Origin: an uncultured Chloroflexia bacterium
GTDB lineage: Bacteria; Chloroflexota; Limnocylindria; Limnocylindrales; CSP1-4
Length of the DNA: 64,000 nt
Assembly: GCA_963716025.1 (NCBI GenBank)
Contig: CAVQSY010000068.1
Coordinates: 2,108 to 66,107 of the forward strand
Reading direction: 5' to 3'
How positions within the stretch are numbered: position 1 is the stretch's first letter; each line of letters opens with the position of its first letter. The notes under the pieces are model-generated. The model was not told where the DNA came from. It worked only from the letters and a program-made list of their open reading frames with translations, and searched no databases. The translations under genes and the position numbers were made by a program. Below, in pieces: positions 20,366 through 64,000 of this stretch.

Positions 20366-20425
20366 ACGGCGGCCCGCCCGTGACCCGTTTACATTTCCCC
20401 CGGGTGTCCGCTACCGTCGTGGGAC

Positions 20426-38991: not shown

Positions 38992-39017
38992 GGGGGTCAG
39001 GGGTCAGGGGTCAGGGG
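38992..39017 (+). repeat. (GGGGTCA)n heptamer array, G-quadruplex motif
   Basis: GGGGGTCAGGGGTCAGGGGTCAGGGG. Confidence 0.85.
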
Positions 39018-39028
39018 TCAGGCCCGAG

Positions 39029-40167: not shown

Positions 40168-40250
40168 CCCCTCACCCCTCCGCTCACGCCTCACCCCTCA
40201 CCCCTCACCCTTCACTCCTCACCCCTCACTCCTTACCTCACTCCTCACCG
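40168..40250 (-). repeat. C-rich heptamer array (CCCCTCA/CCTCACT variants); G-rich, G-quadruplex-capable on the minus strand
   Basis: CCCCTCACCCCTCCGCTCACGCCTCACCCCTCACCCCTCACCCTTCACTCCTCACCCCTCACTCC..., about 70 nt upstream of the ileS ATG. Confidence 0.8.
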
Positions 40251-43236: not shown

Positions 43237-43487
43237 CCCGGTTGTGGCGGCTGGTGGCGTTGCCGATCCGTGGCTACAAGCGGTTCATCTCGCCCTGGAT
43301 GCCGCCGGCCTGCCGGTTCGAGCCCACCTGCTCGGTGTACGCCGCCGAGGCCATCGAGACCCACGGTCTGTACGGCATGTGGCTCGACGATCGGCGCATC
43401 CTCAAGTGCCAGCCGTTCCACCCGGGTGGCCACGACCCGGTGCCGCCTCGACGGGTGAAGGGCTCGAGTTCCGGGGTCGACGGCTGA
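43233..43487 (+). CDS. yidD: Membrane protein insertion efficiency factor YidD
   Basis: [31 protein letters not shown]...[17 protein letters not shown]. Its ATG overlaps the ileS stop (ATGA at 43233-43236). Confidence 0.85.
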
Positions 43488-43496
43488 GGGCGGTGG

Positions 43497-44135
43497 ATGA
43501 CCCTTCACCCACCGCTGGAGTGGCCCAACGGCGGCTCTGGCACAATGCGTTCCGTGACGACGCTCGCCGCGATCCGGGCCGCAGTCGAGGGATACCGAGG
43601 GCGGCGCCTGCCCGAGGACAGGAATCGCCGCTGGGCGGCGGTGGCGGCGGTGTTGCGGGACGCCGCGGCGGGCGCCGAGGTGCTGCTGATCCGCCGCGCC
43701 GAGGACCCGCGCGACCCGTGGTCCGGGCACATGGCTTTCCCGGGCGGCCGCGTCGACCCGTGCGACGGCGATCACCTGCGAGGCCGCGATGCGAGAAACC
43801 CTCGAGGAGGTCGGTCTCGACCTCGGTCTCGACGGCCGGCTGCTCGGGCGTCTTTCCGACCTTGCGGCCATCGGCCGAGGTCGGCCGGTGGGCGCTGGTG
43901 ATCGCACCTTTCGTGTTCGAGATCGAGGCCGAACCGGTGCTGCGTACCGAACTACGAGGTCGCCGAGGCGGTGTGGGTGCCGTTCGACTTCCTGCGCGAC
44001 CGCACCAATCTCTCGACCATCGAGTGGCGCCACGACGGCGCCGTCATCCCGCTGCCGTGCTATCGATACCGCGGCCGTGTGATCTGGGGCCTCACCTACG
44101 CCATGGTCCACGAGCTGGTCTCGGCGATCGGCTGA
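43497..44135 (+). pseudogene. Nudix hydrolase (CoA pyrophosphatase-like), 2-3 frameshifts
   Basis: WSGHMAFPGGRVDP...MRETLEEVGLDL (Nudix box); C-terminal ...VIWGLTYAMVHELVSAIG*. Confidence 0.65.
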
Positions 44136-45069: not shown

Positions 45070-46635
45070 ATGGGACTGCGCGTCGAACGTTGGATTCGTG
45101 GCGCCTGGCGGCGACGAGGCTGGGTCGTCGGGGCGGTGCTCGCTGGAGTCGCCGTCGTCGGCCCAGCAGGTGCGCTCGAGGTCGATCCGTACTATGCGTG
45201 GGGGCATTCACCCGCGGACGCCTCCGAGGTGGTCAACGCCAAGTTCGACCTCGAGATCCGGGCGGCGATCGTGCAGGCAGAGGCTCACGGAGAGGGGTTA
45301 CCGTCGTGCGAGCAGGTCACGCGCGCCGTGTACGACCGGCTCGCCTTCGAGATCTTCCAGCCCATCGACCTCTGGGCGGTGCAGTCCCCTCTGCTGCAGA
45401 GGGTTCCGGCGGACGGCGCCGAGACCGCCGAGTATCGCAAGAACAACCTCTACAGCGACGCGGCGCCCTACGACATCGGCATGTGGATGCCGATCACCCC
45501 GGTCATCGAGGTCGACGGCGTTCTCATCGGGATCGACAAGCTCTCGCATTTCGTGTCGTCCGGGTGGAGGTACCGCGAAGCCTACCTCGGCGCCCGCCGT
45601 GACGGGCTCGATCCGAGCGAGGCGGAACGGCACGCGATCCGCAGGGGAATCCTCGAGGAGCGGACCATCAACGGCAGTCTGTCGACCGGAGTCCTGTCCC
45701 GCGGCGACCTCGAGGCCAACCACGGTGGGATGCGTTTCTATCTCGAGGTCTGCAGCGAGGGGGATCCCATTCTCGCCGTCGACGGCGGTCACTGGACCGT
45801 GGTGCGGCCCTTCGACATCCGCCGCTACGTCGGTCCGGAGTGGGACGAGGGGTTCGAGCCGTCGGTTTTCTCCGGCTACCGGTGGCGCCGGGTGCAACCA
45901 CGGCTCGTCCGCTACTGCCCGCGACTCGACGAGCCCGCGGTCCGGGCGATGCTCGACCGCTACCGGGCGGCGGATCGGGAGACGCCGACCGAGGTCGTGT
46001 TCCAGGAGATGGTTGACGAGGGAAAGCTGAAGGACCCGAAGGGCTTCGGTCTTCTCGCCAACTGCCCCGGCGGCGAGCAGCCCGACCGGCCCGAACCGCC
46101 GGATCCTCCTCTCGCGGCCGCGGAGGGAGACCGTCCGGGAGACGAGCAGCGTCTGGAGGACCTTCGACAGGCCCTGCGTGAGCTGGACCTCGACCGTCCC
46201 CTGCGGGTGGTCGGTCTCGTGTCGCTGTCGTTGGACCGTCCCAAGGGTCTGACCGGCTCGATCGGCGCCGTTTTCGCCCATCCACGGCGAAGCGACGACT
46301 GTCGCGACGTGTGCCAGCTCACCGGACCCTACGTGCAGGCCGATGTCGGAACGACCGGCGGTCAGCTGAGCCTCGGCTACGGGTCGATCGTCGGGGACAC
46401 CGGGTCGAGTGATCGATTCGTGACCGCCGCCTACCTCGCGGTCGGCATCGAGGCCGCGCTTCTGCGCACCTGGAGGGATTCGCCGCTCGACCCGGACACC
46501 CAGACCCTCGCCGGTCTCGAGGGCCAGCTGTCGGTGGCCCGGGTCGCATTCCGACTCGGCGTGTTCTATCGCCTGTCCGACGACGCCCAAAGCAATCGCT
46601 GGGTCGTGACGGGGGGTGTCGGCTGGGGCTTCTGA
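45070..46635 (+). CDS. Hypothetical exported protein, 521 aa, beta-barrel-like C-terminus (...GGVGWGF)
   Basis: Intact ORF with an N-terminal hydrophobic segment and a terminal aromatic residue typical of outer-membrane proteins. The family is unknown to me. Confidence 0.45.
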   Translation: MGLRVERWIRGAWRRRGWVVGAVLAGVAVVGPAGALEVDPYYAWGHSPADASEVVNAKFDLEIRAAIVQAEAHGEGLPSCEQVTRAVYDRLAFEIFQPIDLWAVQSPLLQRVPADGAETAEYRKNNLYSDAAPYDIGMWMPITPVIEVDGVLIGIDKLSHFVSSGWRYREAYLGARRDGLDPSEAERHAIRRGILEERTINGSLSTGVLSRGDLEANHGGMRFYLEVCSEGDPILAVDGGHWTVVRPFDIRRYVGPEWDEGFEPSVFSGYRWRRVQPRLVRYCPRLDEPAVRAMLDRYRAADRETPTEVVFQEMVDEGKLKDPKGFGLLANCPGGEQPDRPEPPDPPLAAAEGDRPGDEQRLEDLRQALRELDLDRPLRVVGLVSLSLDRPKGLTGSIGAVFAHPRRSDDCRDVCQLTGPYVQADVGTTGGQLSLGYGSIVGDTGSSDRFVTAAYLAVGIEAALLRTWRDSPLDPDTQTLAGLEGQLSVARVAFRLGVFYRLSDDAQSNRWVVTGGVGWGF

Positions 46636-46665
46636 ACGGGTATCCAGTGCTATTCTCGGTTTGAT

Positions 46666-49604
46666 GTGAAGACACGTCTCGCCGTTCTCGCTTCGGTCAT
46701 GTGGGCGGTCTCGGCGGCAGCCCAGCAGCTCCCGTTCGGGACCTACACCATCGTCGACGGCCTCGTCGACTCGGTGATCTTCACCCTCGAGCAGGACTCC
46801 AGAGGCTACCTGTGGATCGGCACCCGCGCCGGCCTGAACCGCTTCGACGGCCTCGAGTTCGTGGAGGTCACGGTCGACGACGGACTGGCCCACAACGTCA
46901 TCCGTGACGTTCAGGAGACCGCCGACGGCGCTCTGTGGGTCGCGACCGAGCACGGGTTGAGCCGTCTCGTCGATGGGCGCATCAAGAACTGGACGGTCGC
47001 AGAAGGGCTACCGCATCACTCGGTGCGCTGCCTCGCGGAGGGTCCCGACGGCGCGTTGTGGCTCGGCACCTATGGTGGCGGCGCCGCGCGGGTCGTCGAC
47101 GACCGCGTCGAGGTTGTGAGCACCGCCGACGGACTCGTTCACGACAAGGTGCGGGTCATGCTCCGGACAGCGGCGGGCGACCTGTGGTTCGGCACTTCGG
47201 GCGGCGGGCTCTCGAGACTCCGCAACGGCCGCTTCCAGAGCTTCGGCGAGAACGACGGTCTCGGCGATCTCGAGATCCGCAGCCTGTTCGAGGATCGCGA
47301 CCGGGTGCTGTGGGTCGGCACCCGCGGCGGGCTCTACCGGCTCGGGGACGACGATCGCCTGGTGGCGGTGGTCGAGGAGGTGCTCGCGGGCGAGACGGTC
47401 AACGTCATCACCCAGGATCGGCGCGGGCGGCTGTGGGTTGGCACCCGCGAAGGGGGTGCATTCGCCCTCGACACCGGGCGGGTTGTCCGCTACCGCAAAT
47501 CCGACGGGCTCGCCGACGACAGCGTGACGGCGATCCTCGAAGATCGTGAGGGCAGCCTGTGGTTCGGGACCTACGGCGGCGGGCTGTCACGTCTGAGCAC
47601 GGAGGCGATCCACAACTGGCAGCGGCAGGAGGGATTCGACTACGCCAACGTCTACGCCATCGTCGAGGACTCGTCCGGGGCCTTCTGGTTCGGGACCAAC
47701 GGCGGCGGCGTCAGCCGCCTCGCCAATGGGCGTTTCGAGCGATTCACCACCGAGGACGAAATCAGCCACGACAAGGTCGTGGCGGCCATGGAGGACCGCG
47801 ACGGGGCGCTGTGGTTCGGAACGCTCGAGGGTGCCACCCGCTACCGGGGCGGCCGCTTCACGACGCTGGGAGTCGCCGACGGATTGAGCCACGAGTATCG
47901 TCTACCACATTGCCCAGGACCGGCGCGGCGACCTCTGGTTCGCCACCTTCGACGGGCTCACGCGCCGGACGGTCGATGGCCGGTTCCTGCACTACGGTCC
48001 GGCCGACGGGCTCGCGAGCGAGCGGGTGAACTTCATTCGCGAGGCCGCCGACGGCACCCTGTGGTTCGGCACCGCCAACGGGGTCAGCCGATTCGACGGC
48101 GAGAGGTTCACCAGCCTCGGCGTCGAGGACGGGTTGGTCGCCGAGTTCGTCAACCACATCCTCGAGGACTCCTCCGGGGTCCTGTGGATCTCGACCAACC
48201 GCGGCCTGTCGCGCTACGACGGCGCCGGCTTCACCAACTACACCGTGGCCGACGGGCTGTCCCACAACAGCTGTGTGGTCGCCCTCGAGGGTCCCGACGG
48301 GGCGCTCTGGGTCGGCACCAACCGCGGAGTCAACCGGTTCGACGGGACGGCCTTCTCGGTCGTGACGTCGAAGGAGGGCCTGGTCGCCGACCTCGTCAAT
48401 CGCGGCGCCGGATACGCTGATCGCCACGGCAGCCTGTGGTTCGGCACGGTCGGTGGGGTGAGCGAGATCGACGCCACCTTCACGCCACCGGTGCTGCCGC
48501 CGCCCCCGGTCCATCTCGAACAGGTGCGTGTCCTGGGTGAGCCGCTGCCGCTGGGTGTGCGGGCTGTCCTGCCGCACGATCGCAATCATCTCAGGTTCGA
48601 CTTCGTGGGCATCTCCTTCCGGCGTCCCCAGGACGTGCTCTACAGGTACCGCCTTGAAGGCCTCGGGCTCGGCTGGCAGGAGTCGAGGGTGCGGTCGGTT
48701 CAGTACACGTCCCTCCGTGCCGGCCGGTATGTCTTCGAGGTCACCGCGCGGGGTGCTGACGGTGGTTGGAACCCGGCCCCGGCTCGATTCGAGCTCGAGA
48801 TCGTGCCACCGGTGTGGCGGCGGCCGTGGTTCGTGGTGCTGGCCGCCCTGGTCCTGGTGGGAGCGGTGGCTCTGGCGGCTGTGGGAGATGAAACGTCAGA
48901 CGCGGGAGCTCGAACGAAGGGTCCGGGAGCGAACCCGCGAGGTCGAGCAGGCGAATCTGGAGCTGCGCTGGCTCGCGCTCCACGACCGACTCACGAACCT
49001 TCGCAACCGCCACTACATGTACGAGATCATGCCGGACGAGATGACGCGTCTCCATCGCCGGACCTGGAGCGGTGACGACGCCAATGGTGGTTTCGGCCTG
49101 GCGTTGGTCGACCTCGATCACTTCAAGGAGGTCAACGACCAGTGGGACCACTCGGTCGGCGACCAGGCTCTGCGGGCAGTGGCGGAGGCGTTCCGCGACG
49201 CGACGCGGACCGCTGACGTGGTCGCGCGCTGGGGGGGCGAGGAGTTCCTGGTGCTCTTGCGGGACGTCCGGGTCGGTTACCTGCCCGACACGGTGCAACG
49301 ACTACTCGAGGCGGTGCGGCAGCTGCGTGTGCCGGCGGGTTCGAGCGACGTCCGTCTGACCTGCTCGATCGGCTACACCCACTTCCCGGGCCACGTTCCG
49401 GTGGCGACCTACACCTGGGAGGACGTCGTCAGGATCGCGGATGTCGCTCTCTACCTGGCCAAGGCCGAGGGTCGTGATCGGGCGGTCGGCCTCACCTACG
49501 ACCTGGCGACCCCTCCGGCCGAGCTCATGGCGAGCCTTCGCAGTGACGTCCATCGCGGCGAGGAACGCGGTCTGCTGCGCCGGATCGAACCCGCCAGCGG
49601 GTAG
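46666..49604 (+). CDS. Two-component-regulator-propeller (Reg_prop) / Y_Y_Y / TM / GGDEF diguanylate cyclase (frameshifts near 47893 and 48875)
   Basis: Many GL..F....DG.LWIGT/WFGT repeats. YRYRLEGLG..W (Y_Y_Y region). TM segment WFVVLAALVLVGAVALA. GGDEF: LALVDLDHFKEVND, RWGGEEFLVLL. Confidence 0.8.
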
Positions 49605-49653: not shown

Positions 49654-49754
49654 TTCTCACCGCGAAGACGGGACGGACCGCGAAGATGCTGCTCGAAGAA
49701 CGTCACGTGAGGCCCTCTTCTTCGCGGGTTCCTTCTGGCGCTTCGCGGTTCAGG
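49654..49754. repeat. Inverted pair of ACCGCGAAG-type short-period repeats between the convergent GGDEF and polA genes (possible bidirectional terminator)
   Basis: TTCTCACCGCGAAGACGGGACGGACCGCGAAGATGC ... CTCTTCTTCGCGGGTTCCTTCTGGCGCTTCGCGGTTCAGG. Confidence 0.55.
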
Positions 49755-49771
49755 AACCCCGCCGGCGGTCG

Positions 49772-52494
49772 TCAGTGCGCCTCGTCCCAGTTGCGGCCGC
49801 GTGCCGACGTCGACGACCAGGGGCACCGCGAGCTCGATGGCGGTGGTCATCTCGTGGCGCACCATCGTCGGCGACGGCGTCGGCCCGGTCCTCGTCGACC
49901 TCGAGCAGCAGCTCGTCGTGGACCTGCAGCAGCAGGCAGCTGGCCGGGGTGCTCGTGCAGCCAGGCGGCGGTCGACGCGCGATCATCGCCCGCTTGATGA
50001 GGTCGGCGGCCGATGCCCTGGACCGGGGTGTTGATGGCGATGCGCTCGGCCGCCGGCGCGTGCGGCGAAGTTGCCGCTGCCGAGGTCCGGCACCGGCCGG
50101 CGGCGGCCGAGCAGGGTCTCGACGTAGCCGTTGTCGCGGGCCGCCTCGAGGGTGCGCTGCCGGTACTCCTCGATCTCCGGGAAAGCGCTCCTTGTAGCGC
50201 TCGATGTACTCGCCGCGCCTCGCCGCTGGAGATCCGCTGCGTCTGGGCCAGGCCGAAGGCGCTCTGGCCGTAGACGATGCCGAAGTTGACCGCCTTGGCG
50301 ATGCGCGCGCATCGCGCGGGTGACCTCCTCCGGGGGCACGCCGAAGCAGCCCGGCGGCGGTCTCGGCGTGGATGTCGGCGCCGGCGGCGAAGGCGTCGGC
50401 GAAGCCGCCTCGGCCGCCGCACAGGTGGGCGAGGATGCGCAGCTCGATCTGCGAGTAGTCGGCCGACAGGAGCACGCCGGCCCGGGGGCGCGACGAAGGC
50501 CTGGCGGATCCGGCGGCCCTCCTCGGTGCGGACCGGGATGTTCTGCAGGTTGGGGTCGGTGGAGGCGAGGCGCCCGGTGGCGGCGGTGGTCTGCGAGAAG
50601 TTGGTGTGGATGCGGCCGGTCTTCGGGGTTGACCAGCCGGCAGCGGGTCGACGTAGGTGTTCTTGAGCTTGACCAGCGACCGGTAGTCGAGGATGCGCCT
50701 CGGGCAGCGGGTGCTGCAGGGCGAGCTCGCTCGAGCACCGACTCGTCGGTCGACGGCCCGGTCTTGGTGCGTCTTGATGACCGGCAGCCCGAGCGTCGTC
50801 GAAGAGGATCTCGCGCAGCTGCTTGACCGAGCCGATGTTGAACTCGCGGCCGGCGAGCCTCGTGGCAGCGCGCGCTCGGCCTCGGCGATGCGCCCGGTCG
50901 AGCTCGACCGACAGCGCCGCGAACAGCCTCGCGGTCGACGCGCGATGCCGTGTCGCTCCATGCGGGCGAGCACCGGCGATCAGCGGCACCTCGAGCTCGC
51001 GGTAGAGCACGACCAGCGCCGTTCTCGTCGAGCAGCGGCGCCGAGCTGCTGGTCGAGCAGCCAGGTGACGTGGGCGTCCTCGGCGGCGTAGTCCCGGGCC
51101 GTCCTCGAGCGGCACCGCGGCGAAGGTGCGCGCCGTCCGCCGACGGCCTCGGCGAACGAGATCATCCGGTGCTCGAGGTGGACCAGCGCCAGGTCGTCGA
51201 GCTTGTGCGAGCGGCGGTCCGGGGTCAGCAGGTAGTCGGCGAGCAGGGTGTCGCCGTCGATGCCCGGCGACCTCGACGCCGTGACCGGCCAGCACCTTGA
51301 GGTCGTACTTGAGGTTCTGGCCGGTCTTGCCGCTGCGACGGGTCCTCGAGCAGCGGGCCGAGCACCTCGCGCACCCGCGGCCAGGCGCAGCTGCCGGCGC
51401 CGTCGAGGCTGCGTGTGGCCGACCGGGCACGTACCACGCCACGTCGTCGTCGCAGCAGAAGGACAGGCCCGACCAGGTCGGCCTCCAGCGGGTCGAGGGA
51501 GGTGGTCTCGGTGTCGAAGGCGAAGCGCGGCGCCGCGGCGAGCGCGGCGCGCAGCTCCGCCGAGCTCCTCCTCGGTGGTCACCAGCCGGTAGCTCGCAGC
51601 GGTCGACGGCCGCCATCTCGCCGCCGAACTCCTTGAGCAGGCCGCGGAACTCGAGCTCGCTGAACAGCTCGCGCGGCCGCGTCCGGCGGGCGGCGGGAAG
51701 TCGAGGCGCGAGGTCGTCGAGCGTGACCTCGACCGGGACGTCGGTGCGGATCGTGGCGAGCTCGCGCGACAGGTAGGCCTGGTCGCGGTCGGCCTCGAGC
51801 TTGGCGCGGACGCCCGGCCGGCGCCACCTCGTCGAGGTGGGCGTAGATGTCGTCGAGACCGCGCCAGCTCGGCCGAGCAGCTTCTTCGCGCCCTTCTCGC
51901 CGATGCCCTTGACGCCGGGGATGTTGTCCGAGGTGTCGCCCCAGATGCCGAGGGCGTCGGGGACGAGCTCGGGCGGGCAGCCGAACTTCTCCGTCGACCT
52001 CGCCGAAGCGAGATCCTGCGCGTCCTTCATCGAGTCGAACAGGCTGACGTGGTCGCGCGACGAGCTGCATCAGGTCCTTGTCCGAGCTGACCAGCACCAC
52101 GTCGAGCTCGCCCTCGTGGCGCCTGGCCAGGGTGCCCATGACGTCGTCGGCCTCGAAGCCGTCGATGCACCAGGAACGGGAACGCCGAAGGCCTCGGCGA
52201 CCCGCGGGAAGAGCGGCATCTGCGCGCGCAGCGCGTCGGGCATGTCGGGTCGCGTGCCCTTGTACTCGCGGGAAGAGCTCGTCGCGGAAGGTGCCGCCCT
52301 CGGGTCCCAGGTGATCGCCAGGTAGTCGGGCTGCTCGTCCCGGATCAGCTTGAGCAGCATGTTGATGAAGCCGAACAGCGCGTTGGTCGGCTGCCCCTTC
52401 GAGCTCGCCATGCCGCCGATCGCGAAGAAGGCCCGGAACGCCATGTTCGGGCCGTCGACCAGATACAGCGTGGGTCGTCGTGGGGTGTCGCTCA
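49772..52494 (-). pseudogene. polA: DNA polymerase I, many frameshifts
   Basis: MSDTPRRPTLYLVDGPNMAFRAFFA (5' nuclease); GDTSDNIPGVKGIGEKGA; SADYSQIELRILAH; RRxAKAVNFGIVYG; QVHDELLLEV; C-terminal ...VDVG....NWDEAH* after a last frameshift. Confidence 0.85.
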
Positions 52495-52525
52495 TCGGGG
52501 GATCTTCCCACAGACGGCCAAGCCT

Positions 52526-52813
52526 GTGCAGCGCGACGTCCGTGACCTCGCCCGGATCCGCTCCCTCGAGGTCCTGGATCGAGACGGCGGCGAGGTGGAC
52601 CTGGTGCTCGAGCGGGGCGGCCACGAGCTGGCAGGGCTGGAGGTCAAGGCCTCGGCCACCGTCGTCGAGGCCGACTTCCGCGCCCTGCGCAGGCTCCGTG
52701 ACGCGGTCGGCGACCGGTTCCGGGCCGGTGTCGTGCTCTACGACGGCGAGACCACCGTCCCCTTCGGCGACCGCCTGTGGGCGGTGCCCGTGCGGAGGCT
52801 CTGGGAGGGGTAG
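52526..52813 (+). pseudogene. Remnant of the AAA+/DUF4143-type ATPase (5' truncated, internal deletion, PD-(D/E)xK-like tail retained)
   Basis: VQRDVRDLARIRSLE joined directly to DGGEVDLVLERGGHELAGLEVKASATV...VVLYDGETTVPFGDRLWAVPVRRLWEG*. Compare the full copy at 57604..58851. Confidence 0.7.
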
Positions 52814-53410
52814 GGGAGATCCGGCTGGAGAGGGCCTCAGCGAGCAGGGACAGCGACAGGGGCAGTGTTCAGGGACAGCGACAGCGGCAGCGAGCAGGAA
52901 CAGGACCGGCGATCATCGCCAGCGACGGGGTCGGCGACAGGGCTCGCGATGGCGTCGCCCAGGGGGGGTAGCCGGCAACCTGGGCGGTGTCGAAGGTCGC
53001 TTCGCGACCGGCCTGCGGCGGCGATCCGTCGGGACGCCCGGCTCGAGCTGTTCTCCGGGGGGATGGGCGGACGTCGACTTCGTCTGGCCGTGCCGGTCGT
53101 CGATCGCGAGGGGAACGCCCGTTCGCCAGGGTGCATGGCGCCACGGGCACACTCCTGCAGACCTGGGCTGGGCCCGTGCCATGGGACGGCGACGAGGGAC
53201 AGAAAGTGAGTGGAGTCATCGGGACGACGCCGAAGACGATTGTCGGGCCTTCGTGCTACCCGACGCCGATCCCCGCAGCGGTCACCGCCACGTCAAGGAG
53301 CTGCGCCCAGAGAGACGGGGCGCTTCGCCCCGACGGTCTCGCGGTGAGCACCTCCCCGGTTCTCTCGGCGTCCTACGGGCAGGGCGTCACGCACCAGGCG
53401 ATGACGAGCA

Positions 53411-54723
53411 ATGGCGGCCCATCCAGAGATCCGCGTGTTCTCGGGATGGGCATCCAATCCCGGGGAGGCACAATGTAATCTGGCTGGGCGGACGCGGGAC
53501 CTTCGCTTGGTCCCGGTGATGTCCGTCGGCGGAGTCCCTCAGTTTGAAGACCTGCGAGACATCGATGACACGGTCGATATCGCCGGCAGAGCGGCGGGGG
53601 ACGCTCTCTTCCACGCGAGAAGCGCTCTTTCCGTGCTTGCGGGACTCGGCTGGGCTGGGTTCGACGCACTGGACCTCGTCGTGCAATCCTGGTTCTGCAC
53701 GGATGGTGCGCAGTACTCAGCCGGGGCCGAGTACCAGCACAACCAGTACCTGACAGGGCGAAATGCCGTTCACTTCTGCCGGCATCTCGACGAATGTCGC
53801 CAATGACGACCAGTTTGACCCGCTCTTCATGAGCCCCACGAACCTGATGTTCTCAGCCGCCCAGGACGTGGTGGCGCACGAGATCGGGCACGGGATACAT
53901 GTTCGGCCTGACCCCCTGGGTACGAGATGCAGGTGACGGCGAGGTGACCTGGGAAGACGTGCTGCACGAGGGGTGGGCCGACATCATTGGTTTGATTGTG
54001 GAGTGGGCAGCAGAGGGTTCGCAGGGAGATGGGATGTCCCTGGATCCAGATGAGTTCGACCGCGTCGAGCACGCTGACTGGTTCGCCGGCGAGGACGTGC
54101 TCCGGGCGCCTCTCATCAGCAACGAGGACGCGGATCGCCGATGGGACGATTATGACGACGGGGCGAACGTTGGGTACTCGCTGCATGGCCTGGACGAGGT
54201 GGGACCGCCGCCCGAAGGACTGGCGGAGTACGCCTACTTTGAATCGAACCGCCTCCCGCTGGCCTTCCGTCTGTCGGTGACCGGCGGCCGGAATCCGGTG
54301 TGCAATCGGAACGTAGATGTCCGGCGTTATTGGACAGGGTGTGAGGTGGGGTTGTTTTCGCCGCAGTTCTGTGCCGAGAATCCCTACTTCTGTCCACCGG
54401 AGCCAGGAGCACCTCCAGGCTCCGTGGGCTCAGACTTCAGTGTGGTCGGAAGGCCGGTCGAAGAGATGAGCAACGCGTTCTTCCGAGCGCTTCGCTTGTA
54501 CTGGATGCACATGGACAGCGATCTCGGCGATGTGGCCGACTTCGTCAAGGTGGCGGCTCACGACCTGTATTACATGGACGGCACCAGCTGGCCGCCGGTG
54601 TGCACGGACGGTTTCGACCAGCAGATCGCGGTCGCCGGAGCCTTCCGGTCGGTCGGATACGAGGGCACCGGCGGCTGGGTCTGCACCTGTTCCTCACCGT
54701 GCAGCCCGCCGGTCGTGTGGTAG
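53411..54723 (+). CDS. Thermolysin-like (M4-type gluzincin) metallopeptidase, at least 2 frameshifts (~53810, ~53895); the true start is probably further upstream (~53200)
   Basis: DALFHARSALSVLAGLGW (compare DAHYYAG..); DVVAHEIGHG (HExxH at 53877-53891); VLHEGWADIIG (compare NEAxSDxxG, third Zn ligand); AFFRALRLYWMHMDSDLGDVADFVKVAAHDLY; Cys-rich tail GGWVCTCSSPCSPPVVW*. Confidence 0.6.
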
Positions 54724-54733
54724 GAGGACGACC

Positions 54734-57354
54734 ATGCCGAGACGGCAAGCAGCGAGAGTCTCTTTCGTGACGGCTGCCGTCGCGGCGGCGCTCTCGGCGG
54801 GGCTGGTCTCCGCCGAGGCGCCTTCCCGGGATGAGGTGGCGCAACGGCCGCTGCTCACGAGAGGGGCAGGCTTCGGAACGGCTCGTTTCAACGGCATCTG
54901 GGATCTCGACCTGGCGACCGGCGGTCTGGGCCGCCTCCGGCCGCTGGTGCTCACCTATCAGTATCCCTACAGCACCGGCTCGTTCTTCAACGGTGGCGAG
55001 GGGGCTCTGTCCGCCCAGGGCGACACGCTGTCATACCGGACGTGGCCGGGAGTGCTCGAGTTCGACCTGTTCTCATGGCGATTGGTGAGGCGGCCTGCCG
55101 AGCACGACTCGGCTGGGGATGTAGGCTGGGTGTCTGCGGCCCGACTTGGGAGGGGAAGACGCAGCGATCGGGAGCTTGGAGCCTGGGTCGTATGGGTTTC
55201 CGATCTGCGTGCGGTCTATCTTCACAGCTGTCTACAACACCGGCACCCCGGGACTGCCCTGCGAACCAGAAAGCCCGCCGTTTTTCCCGGCAGGCACGCC
55301 CTACTACTCCTCGATCCTATTCCAGCCTCCGCTGACCGAGCCAGGAGCGGTCCAGGTGGTGGGCGAGCTTCCGGACGTGGGCTGGCGGGTGACTCTGCCG
55401 TCGACTCGACTGCTGTCACCGGATGCGCGGCGGGGCGGGTTCTGGCGGCCGACGCCGCGGGGCTACCAGTTCATCAGGCTCCCTGCCGGTGGTGGGGTCG
55501 AGGTCGACCCGGTGCAGGACTTCCACGGCGAGCTGCTCGAGCTCGAGAACACCGAGGTCCGGACGCTGGTCTACCACGAGCTCAGCGACTCGCTGATCGG
55601 CAGCGTGTACGACATTCCCTGGACTGGCGGCTCGCAGGGCTACTGGATCTTCGCCGCCGATCCGGAGTCCGGCGAGATGCGGACGCTGACCCACATCGAC
55701 TACGACCTGGAGGGGTACCCCTATACCTGGGCCTCGATCGGGCGGCCGCCGCGGGAGCACGTGCAGACCGTGCCGATCGTCGGCGGCGGACCTGGGGCGC
55801 GGGGGACCGACTGGAGCACCGAGCTCTGGCTCTACAACCCGTCGGCCCGGCCGCAGACGGCGACCCTGCGACGGGTCACGCGCCCGGAGGAGAGCCGGAC
55901 GCTGGAGGTCCCGGGGCACGGCTCCGTGCGGGTCGACGACACCCTGACCTGGCTCGGGGCCGGCCCCTCGGGCGACGGCGTGCGCCACGAGGCGGTGGTG
56001 GTGAGCGCCGAGTCCCGCTGGGCCGAGCAGCTGGTCGCGCAGGGCCGGATCTCCACCGCCGACCCGGCGACCGGGGGCCGCTTCGGGCACGCCGTGCCGG
56101 CGGTGCCGGGCCGGGTCGGCTACTCCAACCACCTCGCCTGGGTCTACGGCGTCGACGAGGAGCTCGACCGGGTGTTCGTGCCGACCATGAACGCCGCCTT
56201 TCTCGATCTCGACAACCTCGAGGCAGGCCGCTTCCGGGCCAACCTCGGGGTGGTCAACGACCTCGACGAGCCGGTGACGATCACCCTGGTCTGGACCCAC
56301 TCCTACACCATCGGGCACTTTCGGCTACGGCCCCCGGAGACCATCCAGCACCTGACGGTGCCGGCCCACGGCGTGGTGCTGCGCCCTCTGGAAGACCTCT
56401 TCCCGGCGGAGATCGTGGCCGCCTTCCCGCCGCGGATCGCCGTGGCGGGGGACCGCCCGGCCATCGTCTGGCTGTCCCTGGTCGACAACCTGACCGGCGA
56501 CGCCACCTTCATCCCCTACACCACCTACCAGCTGTTCAACGACGACCCCGACGACCGGCTGGTGATCCCGGCGGTGGCGAGCACGGGTGGCCGCAACGGC
56601 ACCTCGTGGCGGACCGACCTCCTGGGCGTGGCGTCGTACGACTACCCGTTCGACGGGATCCTCGCCACCTATCGCCCGGAGGACCCGGCGTCGGACTGTG
56701 GCGGCGCGGCACTCGAGGGACCCATCGAGGACTGGGTGCTGGGCGACCTCGGGGCGCCGGTCGAGCCCTGGGTGGCGATCCTCGAGGAGCTCTACGACCG
56801 CGAGTACTCGGACACTCAGGCGACCTTCAGCCTCAACACCGTCTACCGGGACGTGGTGCGCCGCTTCGCGCCGTGCGCCGAGGAGGTCTCGACCAAGGGC
56901 GCCCTCGAGGTCGCCACGGCGAGCTGGACGGCCGGTTGGTCGCGGACCTACACGACTCGACCCGACGGCGGGACCTACGGCGGCATGCTGCCCTTCTACC
57001 CACCGGGGGGCTGGCCGGTGCAGCACTTCGCCGGGCTCGAGGTGAACCCGGAGCAGCGGATCAACGTCGGGCTCTACAACGGCATCGCCGAGCACCCGGT
57101 GACCCACCGGCTGCTGCTCTACGCCGCCGATGGCACCCTGGCCGCGGCGCGCGAGGTCGACGCTCGCACCCCACGAGCACCGCCAGGAGCCGCTGGCGAG
57201 GCTCCTCGCGGTGCCGGTGGAGATCCTGCCCGACGGCCTCTACGGCCTCACCGTGATCCCCCTCGACGACCCCGAGACCGGCCTCGAGGGCCGCTCCTGG
57301 GCCTACGTCTCGCTGGTCGACAACCGCACCAACGACCCGGTGAATCTGTGGTGA
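54734..57354 (+). CDS. ~870-aa secreted protein of unknown function with two tandem ~250-270-aa modules (frameshifts near 55140 and 57160)
   Basis: AGGAGG overlaps the protease TAG stop, and the ATG lies 10 nt after that stop. Signal peptide MPRRQAARVSFVTAAVAAALSAGLVSAEA. The modules start VPIVGGGPGARGTDWSTELWLYN (55770) and VIPAVASTGGRNGTSWRTDLLGV (56562). They end SLVDNLTGDATF and SLVDNRTNDPVNLW*. Confidence 0.7.
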
Positions 57355-57603
57355 TAGAGAAGCGGTAGTGGTTGCCAGATTCGCGAAGCGAATCTCGTAG
57401 CCACTGACGTCCTCGGACGTGGTAGCTCATTCGCGATCGGCCGTGTCATCGGTGTGTGGCCGGTTGGACGGGCCGGGAGTGTCACGGGAAAAGTCAGCCC
57501 TCCTCCATTGGGGTTCGACAGCAGCGCCCAGCACGATCTCCTCTTGCGATCAGCCGAAGGTTGAACTTTCAATCAGCGATCGTAGAGCTTGCAATCAGCC
57601 GAG

Positions 57604-58851
57604 ATGGACGATCCGGTGCTGTACCCGCGATTCGTCGCTGATCGGCTGCTCGAGGCGCTGGACGACACGCCGGTGGTGCTGATCCACGGACCGCGCCAGT
57701 GCGGCAAGACGACGCTGGCGCGGCGGGTCGGCGGAGCCGAGAGGCTACGCCTACTTCAGCTTCGACGACGACGTCGACCTCGCGGCGCCGAGCGCCGACC
57801 CGGTCGGCTTCGTCGCGGACCTGCCGGAGCGGACGATCCTCGACGAGGTGCAGCGGGTGCCCGGGCTGTTCACCGCCCTCAAGACCGCCGTGGATCGGAC
57901 GGCGCACTCCGGGGCGGTTCCTGCTCACCGGCTCGGCCAACGTGCTGCTGGTGCCCACAGCTCGCCGACTCGCTGGCGGGACGCATGGAGATCCTGCGCC
58001 TGCACCCGCTGGCGCAGGCGAGCTGGCCGGGCGTCGCCGGGCTTCCTCGACGCGCTGTTCGGCGAGGGCTTCAAGGCGCGCGAGCGGGCGCGACTCGGCG
58101 GCGGAGCTCGCCGAGCGCATCGTCGCCGGCGGCTACCCGGCGGCGCTCGCGCGAGCCACACCGGCGCCGGCGCGCGCCTGGTACCGCGACTACATCGAGA
58201 CCCTCGTGCAGCGCGACGTGCGCGACCTGGCCCGCATCAGCTCGCTCGACGCCCTGCCCGCGGCTGCTCGCGCTGGCCGCCGCGCAGACGGCGCGCCTGC
58301 TCAACGTGAGCGACCTGGCGGCACCGTTCCAGCTCAGCCGACCGACGATCCGCGACTACGTGACGCTGCTCGAGCGGGTGTTCCTGCTCGAGACGCTGCC
58401 GCCGTGGCACAGCAATCGGCTGAGCCGGCTCGTCAAGACGCCGAAGCTGCACCTCGGCGACACGGGACTGGCCTGCGCCCTGCTCGGCGTCGACGCGCCG
58501 CTCTGGCCGCGGACCGGACCACGCTGCGGCCAGCTGCTCGAGACCTTCGTGTACCAGGAGCTGCGCCGACAGGCGAGCTGGGCACGAGGACGCCGATCCC
58601 GTTCCACCACTTCCGCGACAAGGACGGCGCCGAGGTGGACATCGTGCTCGAGCGCGGCGGCCGCGAGCTGGCCGGCGTCGAGGTCAAGGCCGCGGCGACG
58701 GTCGTCGACGGCGGACTTCCGCGGCCTGCGCAAGCTCGGACGCCGCCGGCGAAGCGCTTCGCGGCGGCGTCGTGCTCTACGACGGCGAGACCACCGTCAG
58801 CTTCGGCGACCGCCTGTGCGCGGTGCCCGTGCGGAGGCTCTGGGAGGGGTA
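57604..58851 (+). pseudogene. AAA+ ATPase with DUF4143-type, PD-(D/E)xK-like C-terminal domain (COG1373-like), many frameshifts
   Basis: VVLIHGPRQCGKTTLAR (Walker A, ~57688-57714); RTILDEVQRVPGLF (Walker B region); YIETLVQRDVRDLARI; LLNVSDLAAPFQLSRPTIRDYV; DGAEVDIVLERGGRELAGVEVKAAATV; VVLYDGETTVSFGDRL. Confidence 0.7.
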
Positions 58852-59340
58852 GGGGAGATCCGGCTGGAGAGGGCCTCAGCGAGCAGGAACAGCGACAGGG
58901 GCAGTGTTCAGGGACAGCGACAGCGGCAGCGAGCAGGAACAGCGGCTTCGCCAGTGTACGGGGTCGGCGACAGGGCTCGCGATGGCGTCGCCCAGGGGGG
59001 CGGCGCCTGGTCACCTCCGGGTCTTTCACGGGGTGAGGGGGGGTTAGCCGGCAACCTGGGCGGTGTCGAAGGTCGCTTCGCGACCGGCCTGCGGCCGGCG
59101 ACCACCTGCGATTGCTGGCCTCGGCGGGGGCCGTCGATCGTCGGCCTGCCGAGGTGGCGCTCGATCGGTCCGACGAGGTCCGGGCGATGACCTTGCGGCT
59201 GCTCCATCCATGAGAGGTCTTGATGAAGAGCTTGACAGCCCCCTTCCCAGGACGCTGTGTTCACGATCGACACGGAGGGCGCCCTCCGCACGAGCACGCG
59301 GAGGAATCACATGCGATCTTGGACGCGCGGGTAGTGGTGT

Positions 59341-59463
59341 ACGTTGGTGGCGATGTGTCTGATGACGACGGTGGCGGGGACGTTCAGGTTGGGCGATGCC
59401 GAGGGAACCGGAGGTTGGGTCTGCACGTGTCAGAGCCCGTGCAGCCCACCGATTGGGTGGTAG
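59341..59463 (+). pseudogene. Remnant of the C-terminal tail of a second M4-like protease copy
   Basis: ...TTVAGTFRLGDAEGTGGWVCTCQSPCSPPIGW* aligns with ...QIAVAGAFRSVGYEGTGGWVCTCSSPCSPPVVW* of 54723. It is followed by the same TAGGAGGACGACCATG junction. Confidence 0.65.
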
Positions 59464-59473
59464 GAGGACGACC

Positions 59474-62078
59474 ATGCCGAGACGGCAAGCAGCGAGAGTC
59501 TCTTTCGTGACCGCTGCCGCCGCGGCGGCGCTCTCGGCGGGCTGGTCTCCGCCGAGGCGCCTTCCCGGGAGCAGGTGGCAGACGGGCCGTACCTGACGCG
59601 GGCCGCGGGTTTTGGAACGGCCCGCTACAACGGCATCTGGAAGCTGAACCTGGAGTCCGGGGAGCTGTCGATAGCCTGCCCGCTGGTGTCTCACGTGGCA
59701 GCACGCGTACCTGATCGAGAAGTTCTTCATAGGTGGAGAAGCCGCGCCTGCCGCCCACGGCGACACATGTCCTACCGCACCTGGCCTGGGATCCTCGAGT
59801 TCGACCTGTTCTCCTGGCGCCTGCTGCGCAGGCTGCCCAGCGTGACGCGCCCGGGCGATGTCGGCTGGAGACTCCTGGACCGACGCTGGCGGCGGACGGA
59901 TACCGAGGCGACTGGGATCGGGCCGGGACCTACGGGTTTCCAATCTGCCGGAGGAGCTTCTTGACGTGGAGAGGTCCCCAGTTCCCCGAAACGACTACCT
60001 CGGCTGCGGCCCGTCGAGCCCGAGTTCGCTCCGAGAACGTTCCCTACTTCACGACGTGGGTCCACCAGTCGGACTTCGACGCGGGAGGGAATCTGATGAT
60101 CCTGGCATCGCTTCCGGAGGTAGACTGGCGAGCTCTACCTTCGTCGGCCGACGTGCTCCTTCGACGCCTCTCGCGGCGGATTCTGGCGGCCGACTTCGCG
60201 AGGCTACCAGCTGTCCGGTCGTCGTCGGACGGCGGGCATCGAGGTCGAGGTCGGCGCACGAACTTCGACGGCGAGGTCCTCGATCTCGAGGACGCCGGCG
60301 TGCGCTCGCGGCGTTCCACGAGCCGTCGGGCACCTGGTCGGCAGCGTCGCGCACATCCCGTTCTCCGGGCCGGCTCAGGGCTACTGGATCTTCTCCGCCG
60401 ACCCCGCGACCGGCGAGATGCGGACGCTGGCCCATTTCGACTACGACCGCGAGGGATATCCCTATATGTGGGCGCTCGGTGGGCGGCCGCCGCGGGAGCA
60501 CGTGCAGACCGTGCCGATCGTCGGCGGCGGACCTGGGGCGCGGGGGACCGACTGGAGCACCGAGCTCTGGCTCTACAACCCGTCGGCCCGGCCGCAGACG
60601 GCGACCCTGCGACGGGTCACGCGCCCGGAGGAGAGCCGGACGCTGGAGGTCCCGGGGCACGGCTCCGTGCGGGTCGACGACACCCTGACCTGGCTCGGGG
60701 CCGGCCCCTCGGGCGACGGCGTGCGCCACGAGGCGGTGGTGGTGAGCGCCGAGTCCCGCTGGGCCGAGGAGCTGGTCGCGCAGGGCCGGATCTCCACTGC
60801 CGACCCGGCGACCGGGGGCCGCTTCGGGCACGCCGTGCCCGCGGTGCCCGGCCGGGTCGGCTACTCCAACCACCTCGCCTGGGTCTACGGCGTCGACGAG
60901 GAGCTCGACCGGGTGTTCGTGCCGACCATGAACGCCGCCGTTCTCGATCTCGACAACCTCGAGGCAGGCCGCTTCCGGCGCATAACCTCGGGGTGGTCAA
61001 CGACCTCGACGAGCCGGTGACGATGACCCTGGTCTGGACGCACTCCTACACCATCGGGCAGTTTCGGCTACGGCCCCCGGAGACCATACAGCACCTGACG
61101 GTGCCGGCCCACGGGGTGGTGTGCGCCCTCGAAGACCTCTTCCGGCGGAGATCGTCGCCGCCTTCCCGCCGCGGATCGCCGTGGCCGGGGACCGCCCGGC
61201 CATCGTCTGGCTGTCCCTGGTCGACAACCTGACCGGCGACGCCACCTTCGTCCCCTACACCACCTACCAGCTGTTCAACGACGACCCCGACGACCGGCTG
61301 GTGATCCCGGCGTGGCGAGCACGGGTGGCCGCAACGGCACCTCTGGCGGACCGACCTCCTCGGCGTGGCATCGACGAAGACCCGTTCGACGGGTCCTCCA
61401 CCTATCGCCCGGAGGACTCCGGCGTCGGACTGCGGCGGCGCGGCACTCGAGGGACCCATCGAGGACTCGGTGCTGGGCGACCTCGGGGCGCCGGTCGAGC
61501 CCGGGTGGGACTCGAGGAGCTCTACGACCGCGTGTACTCGGACACTGAGGCGACCTTCAGCCTGGAAGACCGTCTACCGGGACGCCGTGCGCCGCTTCGC
61601 GCGTGCGCCGAGGAGGTCGACTCAAGGGCGCGCTCGAGGTCGCGACGGCGAGCTGGACCGCCGTGGTCGCGGACCTACACCACTCGCCCCGACGGCGGCA
61701 CCTACGGCGGCATGCTGCCGTTCTACCCGCCGGGGCTGGCCGGTGCAGCACTTCGCCGGCATCGAGGTGGACCCGGAGCAGCGGATCAACCTCGGCCTCT
61801 ACAACGGCAACCACGAGCACCCGGTCACCCACCGGCGCACGCTCTACGCCGCCGACGGCACCCTGGCCGCGGCGCGGGAGGTCGTCCTGCAACCCCACGA
61901 GCACCGCCAGGAGCCGCTGGCGAGGCTCCTCGCGGTGCCGGTGGAGCTCCTGCCCGACGGCCTCTACGGCCTCACCGTGATCCCCCTCGACGACCCGGAG
62001 ACCGGCCTCGAGGGCCGCTCCTGGGCCTACGTCTCGATCGTCGACAACCTAACCAACGATCCGGTGAATCTCTGGTGA
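59474..62078 (+). pseudogene. Second copy of the ~870-aa secreted two-module protein, many frameshifts
   Basis: Same N-terminus MPRRQAARVSFVTAA and same C-terminus ...SWAYVSIVDNLTNDPVNLW*. ORF 60418..61020 is almost identical to the corresponding part of copy 1. The N-terminal third is clearly diverged. Confidence 0.75.
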
Positions 62079-62141
62079 GGGAGGGGCGAGAGTGATCCCA
62101 AGATTCGCGTCGTAGATCTGGGAGCCACGAACGTTTCGGGG

Positions 62142-64000
62142 TCACCGTGCCGTCACCTCGAAGCGGCTGATCTCGCGGGCGGTGTCGTCGAGGGCGGCGG
62201 CGAAGGCGTCCTCGGTTCCGACCCGGTGTGGAGTCATGAGGTCGGTGAGGATCTCGCGGACCTCGCTGCGGGAGGTGTTGAGCCGGACGAGATCGTCGTC
62301 GATGTGGAGCGAGGCCTCTTCGACGATGCGGGTGGCCGCCTCGGACCAGGGGGCGCCGGGCGAGACGACGGTGCCGAGACGCTCGCGGAGCTCGGCCTCG
62401 ACCTCGGCGTTGAGGGCCTTCTTGACCCGGTTGGCGGTCGCCTCGAGCTCGAGGTGGAGGGGCTCCATCTCGGCGTGCATGGACTCCATGGCCTCGTGCA
62501 TCGGCTCCATGCGCTCATGGATCCGGGCCATCGCCTCGTGGTGGGGCGCCATCTCAAGGTGCACCTCGGCGAGGTGTTCATGGAGCGGCTCGAGCTCGCG
62601 GTGCAGCGCCTCGAGCTGCTCGTGCATCGGCTCGAGGTCGACGTGGAGCTGCTCGAGGTTGGCGAGATGTGACTTCAGCTGCTCCTCGATCTGGCGGTGG
62701 ATGTCCTTGATGGTGCCACGCTCGATGTCGAGCTCGATCGACTCGACCACACGGCTCGCCGCCTCGATCTGCTCCAGATAGGGTTCCATGTCGATCTCGA
62801 TCTCGGCGATCCGGTCGAGGTAGGGCTCCATCCGGCGCTCGATTTCCAGCATCGCCGCCTCATCGACGTGCGCGGCGGCCTCGATCCCCTCGGCCTCGAG
62901 CTCGATCTCGGCCGCCGCCTCCTCGAGGCGCTCGTGGTAGGGCTCGAGGCGCGCCTCGACCTCGCGCAGGTCGGCGAGCGCCTGGGCGAGCTCGGTGCCG
63001 GCCTGGCGGGTTTCGGGCTGGACGGCAGCGACGACGGGAACGAGGGCAGCGATCGCGAGGACCGCGGCGGTCAGGGCGGTGCGGGTGGCGGGGTGGATGC
63101 GGGGGCGGTCCAGCATGGCCATGATGCGTTCCTCCACTTCGTGACGGCGAGCCATCCCGGCGACCGGAATGGTGCAGATGGGGCGTCGTCCTGCCAGGCG
63201 GGCGATGCCGAGCAGGTGGCTGGCGTAGTCGGTGGCGCGCTCGCCGAGGGCGAGCACCGTCTCGTCACAGGCGAGCTCCTGCTCGAGCTCGAGGCGCCGG
63301 ACGGCCCACCAGACGAGGGGGTTGAACCAGTACACGGCGACGGTGATCCGCGCCAGGGAGCGCAGCGCCCAGTCACCGCGCGTGACGTGGACGAGCTCGT
63401 GGAGCAGCACGGCGTCGCGGCGATCGGCGAGCCACTGCCCGCAGTGCTCCGGCAGCACGATGACGGGGGCGATCACACCGAGGGTCGCCGGCACGCCGAG
63501 CTCGGCGCTGGCGAGCAGCCGGACGGGTCGCCGGCATCCGGTGCGGCGCCCGGCGCGGTCGAAGGCGGCGCGCCACTCGAGGTCGTCGAGGAGATGGCCG
63601 CGGCGCACCGCGCCGAAGGCGCGCCACCAGCCGACCGTCTGTCGCGCGAGCACGGCGAGGGCGCCGGCGAGCCACAGGACGATCGCCACCAGCGACCACG
63701 GTACGGCCCCCGTCTCGACCGCAGACGGCGCTGGCACTCCGCTCGCGACCCCGGTCGGGTGTGCTGCCGCCGCTGCCGTGCTCTCCGGGCTCGGCGCCCG
63801 GCCGGACTCCGCCGCCGGGGCGAGGGGCGATCGGATGGTGACGGCCGGCAGCGCGATCTCCAGGGAGGGCCCGACGACGGCGAGAGCCGGCACCAGCAGG
63901 CTGCCGCAGATCGCGGTCGCCCACACCAGGGAGCGCAGACGGGCGCTGGCGCGACGCAGGGCCAGCGCTGCCACCGCCGCAACGACGAGCAGTAGTCCGG
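62142..64000 (-). CDS. BlaR1/M56-family membrane metalloprotease-type sensor with a His/Met-rich repeat ectodomain; the N-terminus probably lies beyond the window end
   Basis: LLHELVHVTRGDW (HExxH at 63387-63401), YWFNPLVWW, ELACDE. A C-terminal 11-residue repeat region lies at 62430-62987. The frame stays open to the window edge upstream of the first Met (63974). Confidence 0.7.
   Translation of the reverse strand, partial: GLLLVVAAVAALALRRASARLRSLVWATAICGSLLVPALAVVGPSLEIALPAVTIRSPLAPAAESGRAPSPESTAAAAAHPTGVASGVPAPSAVETGAVPWSLVAIVLWLAGALAVLARQTVGWWRAFGAVRRGHLLDDLEWRAAFDRAGRRTGCRRPVRLLASAELGVPATLGVIAPVIVLPEHCGQWLADRRDAVLLHELVHVTRGDWALRSLARITVAVYWFNPLVWWAVRRLELEQELACDETVLALGERATDYASHLLGIARLAGRRPICTIPVAGMARRHEVEERIMAMLDRPRIHPATRTALTAAVLAIAALVPVVAAVQPETRQAGTELAQALADLREVEARLEPYHERLEEAAAEIELEAEGIEAAAHVDEAAMLEIERRMEPYLDRIAEIEIDMEPYLEQIEAASRVVESIELDIERGTIKDIHRQIEEQLKSHLANLEQLHVDLEPMHEQLEALHRELEPLHEHLAEVHLEMAPHHEAMARIHERMEPMHEAMESMHAEMEPLHLELEATANRVKKALNAEVEAELRERLGTVVSPGAPWSEAATRIVEEASLHIDDDLVRLNTSRSEVREILTDLMTPHRVGTEDAFAAALDDTAREISRFEVTAR

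Follow-up and report, generated by a model that had tools for sequence, protein, structure and literature searches.

In the window analysed here, a stretch of 64,000 nucleotides from contig CAVQSY010000068.1 of an uncultured Chloroflexia bacterium, positions 52526 to 62140 hold two adjacent units, each with sequence of an AAA_14/DUF4143 ATPase, of a thermolysin-like metalloprotease and of a large secreted protein, which we call the partner (sec1 in unit 1 and sec2 in unit 2). The best explanation, to which we give a probability of roughly 0.7, is an old tandem duplication of the ATPase, protease and partner segment, followed by gene conversion between the copies and by deletions, and seen through a contig that is rich in errors.

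Comparison of the window with itself using blastn gave two collinear blocks on the same strand: 52583–53024 matches 58623–59101 with 82% identity, and 54629–57410 matches 59369–62134 with 84% identity across 2,821 columns (E = 0). An extra match of 51 nt (52526–52576 with 58206–58256, 84%) lengthens the ATPase-side block, which overall pairs 52526–53024 with 58206–59101 at about 82%. The same comparison found no second repeat of similar scale within the window. The two units also share exact landmarks. A 46-nt sequence at the ATPase stop is found at 52803 and 58842, and TAGGAGGACGACCATG at 54721 and 59461; neither occurs in shuffled sequences. Both secreted proteins finish with the C-terminal sequence TNDPVNLW. 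The units are separated by a spacer (57355–57603, forward strand), in which homology with the region downstream of copy 2 stops at 57410, leaving 57411–57603 unique. The first-pass annotation, made from the sequence of this region, had described a tandem duplication of two units with these landmarks and with unit 1 abutting polA, all of which is confirmed here; the ATPase remnant that opens unit 1 starts at 52526, 30 nt from the polA ATG at 52495. On this alignment evidence the two units are to be regarded as collinear paralogues, arising by a real tandem duplication that included ATPase, protease and secreted-protein sequence.

The similarity between the units is a mosaic, as the same annotation had noticed. 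The partner genes sec1 (54734–57354) and sec2 (59474–62078), both on the forward strand, are 46–69% identical at 54880–55600 but 92–99% identical between about 55731 and the stop codon, with 100% identity across the 300 nt at 55740–56039 (60481–60780 in sec2). These 300 nt form the core of a putative conversion tract of ~0.9–1.6 kb, with identities of 87–99% across 55731–57354. The parts that are 90–100% identical between the units are the C-terminal ~60% of the secreted gene, the junction between the protease end and the signal peptide, and the 3′ end of the ATPase with its tail. Synonymous divergence (dS) between the copies is 0.04 in 55740–56600, 0.15 in 56600–57354, and 0.5–1.0 upstream. 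The drop to 0.04 is not explicable by constraint at the protein level, and points to gene conversion between the tandem copies as the source of the homogenised tracts.

Tandem arrays of paralogues that evolve in concert by gene conversion are well established, for example among bacterial surface-protein genes and the tuf and rrn paralogues. The window resembles them in its adjacent direct repeats, whose tracts of near-identity have sharp boundaries and extend to synonymous sites, in the old divergence that flanks these tracts, and in the loss of parts of one member by deletion. It differs in that conversion has spared the N-terminal third of the secreted protein, where divergence is high. An independent array from Holophagae (locus L010), described below, has the same mosaic. 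Cross-talk during polishing was considered as a cause of the identical tract and rejected: the indel-free stretch of sec2 (60324–60982) begins ~150 nt before the rise in identity, and L010 is an independent assembly with the same kind of mosaic.

The age of the duplication can be judged from the closest relative, a metagenome-assembled genome (MAG) from Thermoanaerobaculia, SRP072547_co1_61, whose contig (L007/L008) carries an intact protease of 752 residues (P0021) followed by a partner gene. Over residues 28–130 of sec1, amino acid identity is 83% between unit 2 and L008, 69% between unit 1 and L008, and 62% between the two units; over residues 131–335 the corresponding figures are 60%, 50% and 48%. 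Towards the C-terminus the pattern is reversed, with 80%, 83% and 97% over residues 336–620, and 72%, 77% and 90% over residues 621–745. The copy closest to the N-terminal domain of sec2 is thus that of L008, whereas in the C-terminal part sec1 and sec2 are each most similar to the other. Since the sec2 N-terminal domain is closest to L008, the identities indicate that the duplication is older than the split from the nearest sequenced relative.

A two-unit arrangement could also be created by the assembly itself, either as a repeat expanded in error or as a chimeric contig built from related strains or species. The consensus quality of the contig is clearly low, the array is known here from one assembly alone, a 34-mer specific for its junction has no match in metagenome contigs, and the three paralogous copies of the nearest relative have split its assembly into short contigs of 1.7–7.2 kb (L008, L009 and L020). 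An expanded repeat is unlikely, however, because it would give near-identical copies: the difference between the units is 16% overall and rises to about 40–50% in the N-terminal third, and each has a different deletion of the microhomology type and a unique junction. A chimeric join within the identical tract would leave a single hybrid gene, whereas the window has two complete genes with a spacer and an ATPase between them. Moreover, the protease and partner genes form tandem arrays in at least seven independent assemblies. We consider it very unlikely that the array is an artefact.

Both units have lost most or part of the protease. The copy in unit 1 (53027–54723, forward strand) was located by tblastn with P0021 and the proteins of related loci, by blastn with L007 and by a profile. 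It corresponds to residues ~183–752 of P0021, is read through at least three frame switches (at about 53400, 53790 and 53900), and ends at a TAG stop at 54721–54723. It has no promoter, start codon, signal peptide or N-terminal propeptide, and the tail of the ATPase stands in place of the ~182 missing N-terminal codons. Unit 2 keeps a mini-remnant (59311–59463, forward strand), recognised by tblastn with P0021, by blastn with L007 and from its sequence. In this remnant the first 22 codons, which encode the signal peptide (MRSWTRG, a stop codon, then WCTLVAMCLMTTVAG), have been joined, without a change of frame, to the last ~28 codons (ending in GTGGWVCTCQSPCSPPIGW and the stop codon) by an internal deletion of ~2.1 kb that covers protease codons 23 to about 724. 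It is preceded by the stretch 58853–59310 (forward strand), of which the ATPase-downstream tail, up to 59101, is common to unit 1 and the rest is absent there; the latter includes the protease promoter and 5′ untranslated region (59232–59310), which are 73.5% identical to L007:183–268 and contain TTGACA and a GGAGGA Shine–Dalgarno sequence. Sensitive blastn, tblastn and Smith–Waterman comparisons of 59101–59369 with the unit 1 protease found nothing, and the 5′ end is visible only against P0021 and L007. The unit 1 protease had been called nearly complete, and unit 2 had been credited with only the last ~40 codons. The first description does not fit a gene that covers residues ~183–752 of its relative and has no start or signal peptide, and the second overlooks the promoter, 5′ untranslated region and first 22 codons (59232–59379). 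Because unit 1 is without residues 1–182 and all that unit 2 retains is the signal peptide and the last ~28 residues, neither unit has an intact protease and, judged from what remains of the genes, neither copy can be functional.

Three deletions can be recognised in the two units, two of them at short imperfect homologies. In unit 1, one has taken the 5′ half and an internal piece of the ATPase and another the protease promoter and codons 1–182, the third being that in the unit 2 protease; the non-coding tail of the ATPase in unit 1 (52814–53026, forward strand), about 97% identical to 58853–59101, ends at the deletion junction between GGCCTGCGGC and GGCGATCC and leads straight into protease codon ~183, with a short imperfect homology (GGCCTGCGGC) at the junction. 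It had been proposed that the losses in the two units are complementary. The structural losses do differ between the units, but complementarity does not follow, as the protease is dead in both units, the secreted gene is complete in both, and only one of the ATPases is truncated.

The protease is, by homology, a very divergent M4-like enzyme. An alignment of the frame-corrected window protease with three neighbours of homologous secreted-protein genes has an invariant HE.GH motif in all four members, which in unit 1 is HEIGH (53877–53891). The glutamate expected to be the third zinc ligand (codon 53968–53970) lies within HEGWAD (53965–53982), which aligns with NEAISD of thermolysin and whose H-E-x-x-A-D pattern is invariant in the alignment; the spacing from HExxH to this ligand is 26 residues in the window and 20 in L003. 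The family profile matches thermolysin (E = 3e-15), aureolysin (2e-11) and neutral protease (6e-8) in the PDB, with the catalytic motifs aligned and, for thermolysin, the catalytic and C-terminal helical domains covered. Pfam scores are below the gathering thresholds, the best being E = 2.6e-4 for Peptidase_M4 and 3.7e-3 for M4_C, with FTP also below; the raw open reading frames of the protease have no Pfam match, and the protease has none in NCBIfam. Where thermolysin has His231, tyrosine is found in the window, P0021 and L006, and histidine in L003, although this was read by eye from a HMMER alignment in an uncertain region. A search with the alignment of four sequences returned P0021 as its only protein, the candidate list apparently having been swamped. 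As in the MEROPS M4 enzymes (thermolysin, aureolysin, pseudolysin), the family has HExxH and the glutamate of ExxxD, and the relatives of the window protease have a signal peptide, a long N-terminal region and a weak signal of an FTP propeptide; P0021 and L001_665 both carry the signal peptide and the N-terminal propeptide. The family differs from M4 in its large insertions, in its cysteine-rich C-terminus, and in that this protease is always paired with a partner gene of ~870 residues; both window copies are, in addition, truncated.

The ATPase has fared differently in the two units, as the first-pass annotation had described. Unit 2 has the full-length gene (57604–58852, forward strand), identified by Pfam, by PADLOC, by tblastn with the 415-residue ATPase P0093 and by the codon-phase model described below; residues 1–413 of the 415 are read through ~7 frame switches to a TAG stop at 58850–58852. 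Unit 1 has an in-frame remnant of 95 residues (52526–52813, forward strand), identified by the C-terminal end of Pfam DUF4143, by tblastn with P0093 and by alignment to unit 2. It consists of residues 201–219 and 337–413, the 5′ 200 codons and an internal ~120 codons having gone, and its stop is TAG at 52811–52813. The unit 2 protein has the Pfam domains AAA_14 and DUF4143, matches the PADLOC candidate defence family PDC-S01 (PDLC04790) with E = 1.4e-61, and belongs to a family with more than 6,300 homologues of ~415 residues in many phyla, listed as ‘ATP-binding proteins’. PDC-S01, a candidate from a guilt-by-embedding approach, is reported to be among the commonest of the candidate systems, consists of an ATPase fused to a PD-(D/E)xK-type domain, and has not been experimentally validated (PMC12988326). 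The window gene resembles PDC-S01 and the COG1373-type AAA_14-DUF4143 ATPases in its HMM match, its length of ~415 residues and its GPRQCGKT Walker A motif. It differs in that its immediate neighbours, polA, the protease and partner genes and a BlaR1-type gene, do not form a recognisable defence island, and in that one copy is the 95-residue remnant. Just after the ATPase stop, both units contain an imperfect 25-nt repeat, CAGCGAGCAGGGACAGCGACAGCGG, in 2.6–2.7 copies (52838–52903 and 58877–58973).

The written sequence of unit 2 is heavily frameshifted, as had been reported, but this is a background found across the window and is not a property of unit 2. A hidden Markov model of codon phase, based on G+C content at third codon positions, detected frame switches on the same strand every ~100–300 nt in many genes throughout the window, with a few genes clean. 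A control for indel errors is polA (49750–52495, reverse strand), which is spread over all three frames in at least ten pieces; the aligned parts are highly conserved relative to Taq, E. coli and Mycobacterium Pol I, and contain no nonsense codons. Other broken genes in the window are topA, two class-I aminoacyl-tRNA synthetase genes and ABC-F ATPase genes. Stretches with frame switches include 1637–3575, 5997–8833, 14503–16461, 26747–28399, 29149–31371, 40435–44133 and 49792–52472; clean stretches are 18598–21088, 24291–25503, 46217–47897 and 62154–64000. The database gene calls for the source contig (P0001 and P0022) have the same breaks.

These frameshifts have been read as complementary decay of the two units, and in a wider form the same idea would hold that they are real and that unit 2, together with much of the contig, is undergoing pseudogenisation. 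There is some evidence in its favour: ~28 codons of sec2 are hit by small indels compared with 2 in sec1, and the large deletions in both proteases and in one ATPase are certainly real. Against it, the same density of indels breaks polA, topA and the two synthetase genes, whose joint loss would be implausible in a living cell, and the broken genes keep high amino acid conservation without nonsense codons. sec2 has its full length and no large deletion, and reconstructs as a conserved protein once the indel-hit codons are skipped. Between sec1 and sec2 dN/dS is about 0.4, and neither copy shows a rate acceleration relative to L008. We consider real pseudogenisation unlikely. As a simultaneous real loss of polA, topA and the synthetase genes is not credible, the frameshifts of 1–2 nt are most likely consensus indel errors in the deposited assembly. 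If they are, the true content of the locus would be a single ATPase and two complete secreted paralogues that differ in their N-terminal domains, and it would have no functional protease. The frameshifts in the window should not be read as pseudogenes, and any pseudogene call made there is suspect.

The partner gene sec1, described earlier as nearly intact, gives 872 residues after two frame corrections (one at about 55135, and one for a surplus C at 57167), and consists of a signal peptide, an N-terminal variable domain, and a region of beta-sandwich repeated three times. Searches among 5.8e9 proteins gave 20 relatives, 860–885 residues long, that cover 97–100% of the corrected sequence. An exhaustive profile search among 1.84e9 sequences gave 91 cluster representatives at E <= 1e-30; ~2,000 weaker matches share only the repeat domain, at sec1 positions ~340–460, ~495–650 and ~705–872. 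The AlphaFold2 model of sec1 is all-beta, with a predicted local distance difference test score (pLDDT) of 83 and a predicted template modelling score (pTM) of 0.86. A Foldseek search of the PDB with the whole model gave no global match, only beta-propellers with low template modelling scores and a TM1070-like domain of ~116 residues, and the protein has nothing in Pfam, NCBIfam or PADLOC.

In the distant relatives, the repeat is combined with Peptidase_M10, PKD, fn3, BACON, LVIVD-propeller and CARDB domains. Two proteins from other lineages, P0217 and P0222, combine Peptidase_M10 and PKD/fn3 domains with 3–4 copies of the unannotated beta-sandwich repeat of the partner. The M10 matrixin-PKD-fn3, BACON, LVIVD-propeller-PKD and CARDB proteins have 3–6 copies of the repeat of ~120–170 residues that they share with sec1. 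They differ from the window proteins in that protease or binding domains are fused to the repeats in one chain, whereas the metalloprotease of the window is a separate upstream gene, and in that the N-terminal domain of sec1 is lineage-specific and has no Pfam match. The repeat is a candidate for a new domain family linked to extracellular metalloproteases. By analogy with these proteins, the secreted protein is probably an extracellular binding or anchoring (substrate-binding) partner of metalloproteases, with a variable N-terminal domain. sec2 would be transcribed from the retained protease promoter.

Synteny was examined in 62 non-redundant related loci from genome and metagenome contigs, with flanks of up to 10 kb; all of the named loci are from MAGs of Acidobacteriota (Thermoanaerobaculia and Holophagae). 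Of the 34 partner genes that could be evaluated, 19 are immediately preceded by the protease on the same strand, at distances from a few nucleotides to ~100 nt (as in L003, L006, L007, L010–L012, L016 and L059), and two or more partner genes occur in tandem in 7 of the 62 loci, as prot-sec-prot-sec, sec-prot-sec or sec-sec. None of the 62 loci contains the ATPase within these flanks. The first-pass annotation had proposed a cassette of three genes; since the ATPase is absent from all loci and the protease–partner pair is present in 19 of 34, the loci support a conserved module of two genes, the protease and the secreted protein of ~870 residues, that appears to be readily amplified in tandem and lost. 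The ATPase would then be a local passenger of the duplicated segment, outside the functional module. In the relatives, the intact module most likely encodes a secreted thermolysin-like protease and its extracellular partner.

The array most like that of the window is L010 (Holophagae MAG MFD09964.bin.1.27), in which the second protease is broken and the partner copies are about 50–60% identical in the 5′ part and 96–98% in the 3′ part. L010 has two units, and the 98%-identical locus L011 (MFD03804.bin.1.68) has one. The L010 array is bracketed by a direct repeat of 238 nt with 97% identity (L010:7247–7484 and 17357–17594), which suggests that units are gained or lost by recombination between the flanking repeats. 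In three further loci (L034:4037–5633, L064:2528–4124 and L065:9346–10942) the N-terminal ~220 residues of the protease are joined to the C-terminal ~310 of the partner; these appear to be large deletions that fuse the two genes, a further sign of decay of the module by deletion.

An alternative is that the three genes were not duplicated together. An array of protease and partner genes might have been present already and been invaded twice by related DUF4143 ATPases, or one unit might have been acquired horizontally. Arrays without the ATPase are common, the ATPase family is huge and phylogenetically scattered, with multiple inter-domain transfers described (PMC12988326), and the N-terminal domain of sec1 is as far from sec2 as it is from L008. 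Two separate invasions are, however, hard to reconcile with the ATPase 3′ end and its non-coding tail of about 210–250 nt, which includes the 25-nt repeat, is about 93–97% identical between the units, and has the same position relative to the protease; nor is the ATPase flanked by a transposase, an integrase, a tRNA or terminal repeats. We regard this alternative as quite improbable. Origin as a mobile element was also considered and rejected, there being no tRNA genes, no Rfam matches and no significant inverted repeats flanking the units. A search for promoter and terminator consensus sequences found nothing above chance.

In the duplication model that we favour, the ancestral segment would have consisted of a widespread solitary AAA_14/DUF4143 ATPase, a divergent M4-like secreted zinc protease and an all-beta partner of ~870 residues. 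This segment would have been duplicated in tandem, in an uncultured acidobacterium resembling Thermoanaerobaculia, before the split from the nearest sequenced relative. Gene conversion between the copies would then have homogenised the C-terminal ~60% of the secreted gene, and deletions would have removed the ATPase 5′ half and internal piece and the protease promoter and codons 1–182 from unit 1, and codons 23 to ~724 of the protease from unit 2. The two partner paralogues may persist alone, like the solitary partner genes found in 15 of the 34 evaluable cases.

Several observations weigh against parts of this model. The function given to the secreted protein is read solely from domain co-occurrence, and those 15 partner genes have no protease. 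The contig of the nearest relative begins 268 nt before the protease, so that the position upstream, where an ATPase would lie, is unreadable, and the junction 34-mer is, as noted above, unmatched in metagenome contigs. The density of indels is patchy, a 1.67-kb stretch of sec1, the BlaR1-type gene and several others being clean. Within the recently converted tract, sec2 has 20 unique substitutions and ~12 single-base indels, compared with 3 unique substitutions in sec1, and this excess would also fit some real decay of sec2.

To the right of the units, on the reverse strand, lies an intact gene for a BlaR1-type M56 peptidase/sensor (62142–63974); the homology between the units stops 8 nt before its stop codon. 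Its protein has a long C-terminal region of coiled-coil-like periodic repeats of 7 residues (21 nt; at 62434–62659), with units of the form HxxMEPxHxxLE. Elsewhere in the window there are shorter direct repeats at 15017–15136 and 15877–15996 (76%), probably the two halves of an ABC-F ATPase, and at 39051–39219 and 39937–40105 (85%), near the start of a tRNA-synthetase gene. Intergenic arrays of G-rich heptamers (AGGGGTC or GTCAGGG in 4–5 copies, CCCCTCA in 12) are found at 1498–1525, 16576–16601, 38989–39022 and 40168–40249, and in the related MAG contig L007 the same motif precedes the protease gene (L007:38–85).

The feature is real but evolutionarily ordinary: duplication, gene conversion and deletion are textbook processes, here seen in a contig of low quality, and they do not change views on genome evolution. 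The only mildly novel element is the Acidobacteriota-specific module of protease and partner. We have also considered whether, in Thermoanaerobaculia and Holophagae, the arrays might serve as a lineage-specific means of generating variants of an extracellular protein. A divergent 5′ third, a homogenised 3′ part and a degraded second protease are seen independently in the window and in L010. In such a system, conversion would keep a common scaffold of the C-terminal triple repeat while the propeller-like N-terminal domain diversifies, and redundant copies of the protease would be lost repeatedly. We hold this idea to be doubtful; if true, the cell would be able to bind substrates or surfaces with several specificities. 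What the analysis does delineate is a rare gene pair, a divergent thermolysin-like protease below the Pfam and NCBIfam thresholds and a partner of ~870 residues without an annotated domain. The pair is often amplified in tandem, and the repeat of the partner recurs in ~2,000 large secreted proteins, including fusions with M10 metalloproteases. For an unannotated extracellular domain of an uncultured and little-studied lineage from soil and sediment, this offers a hypothesis that can be tested.

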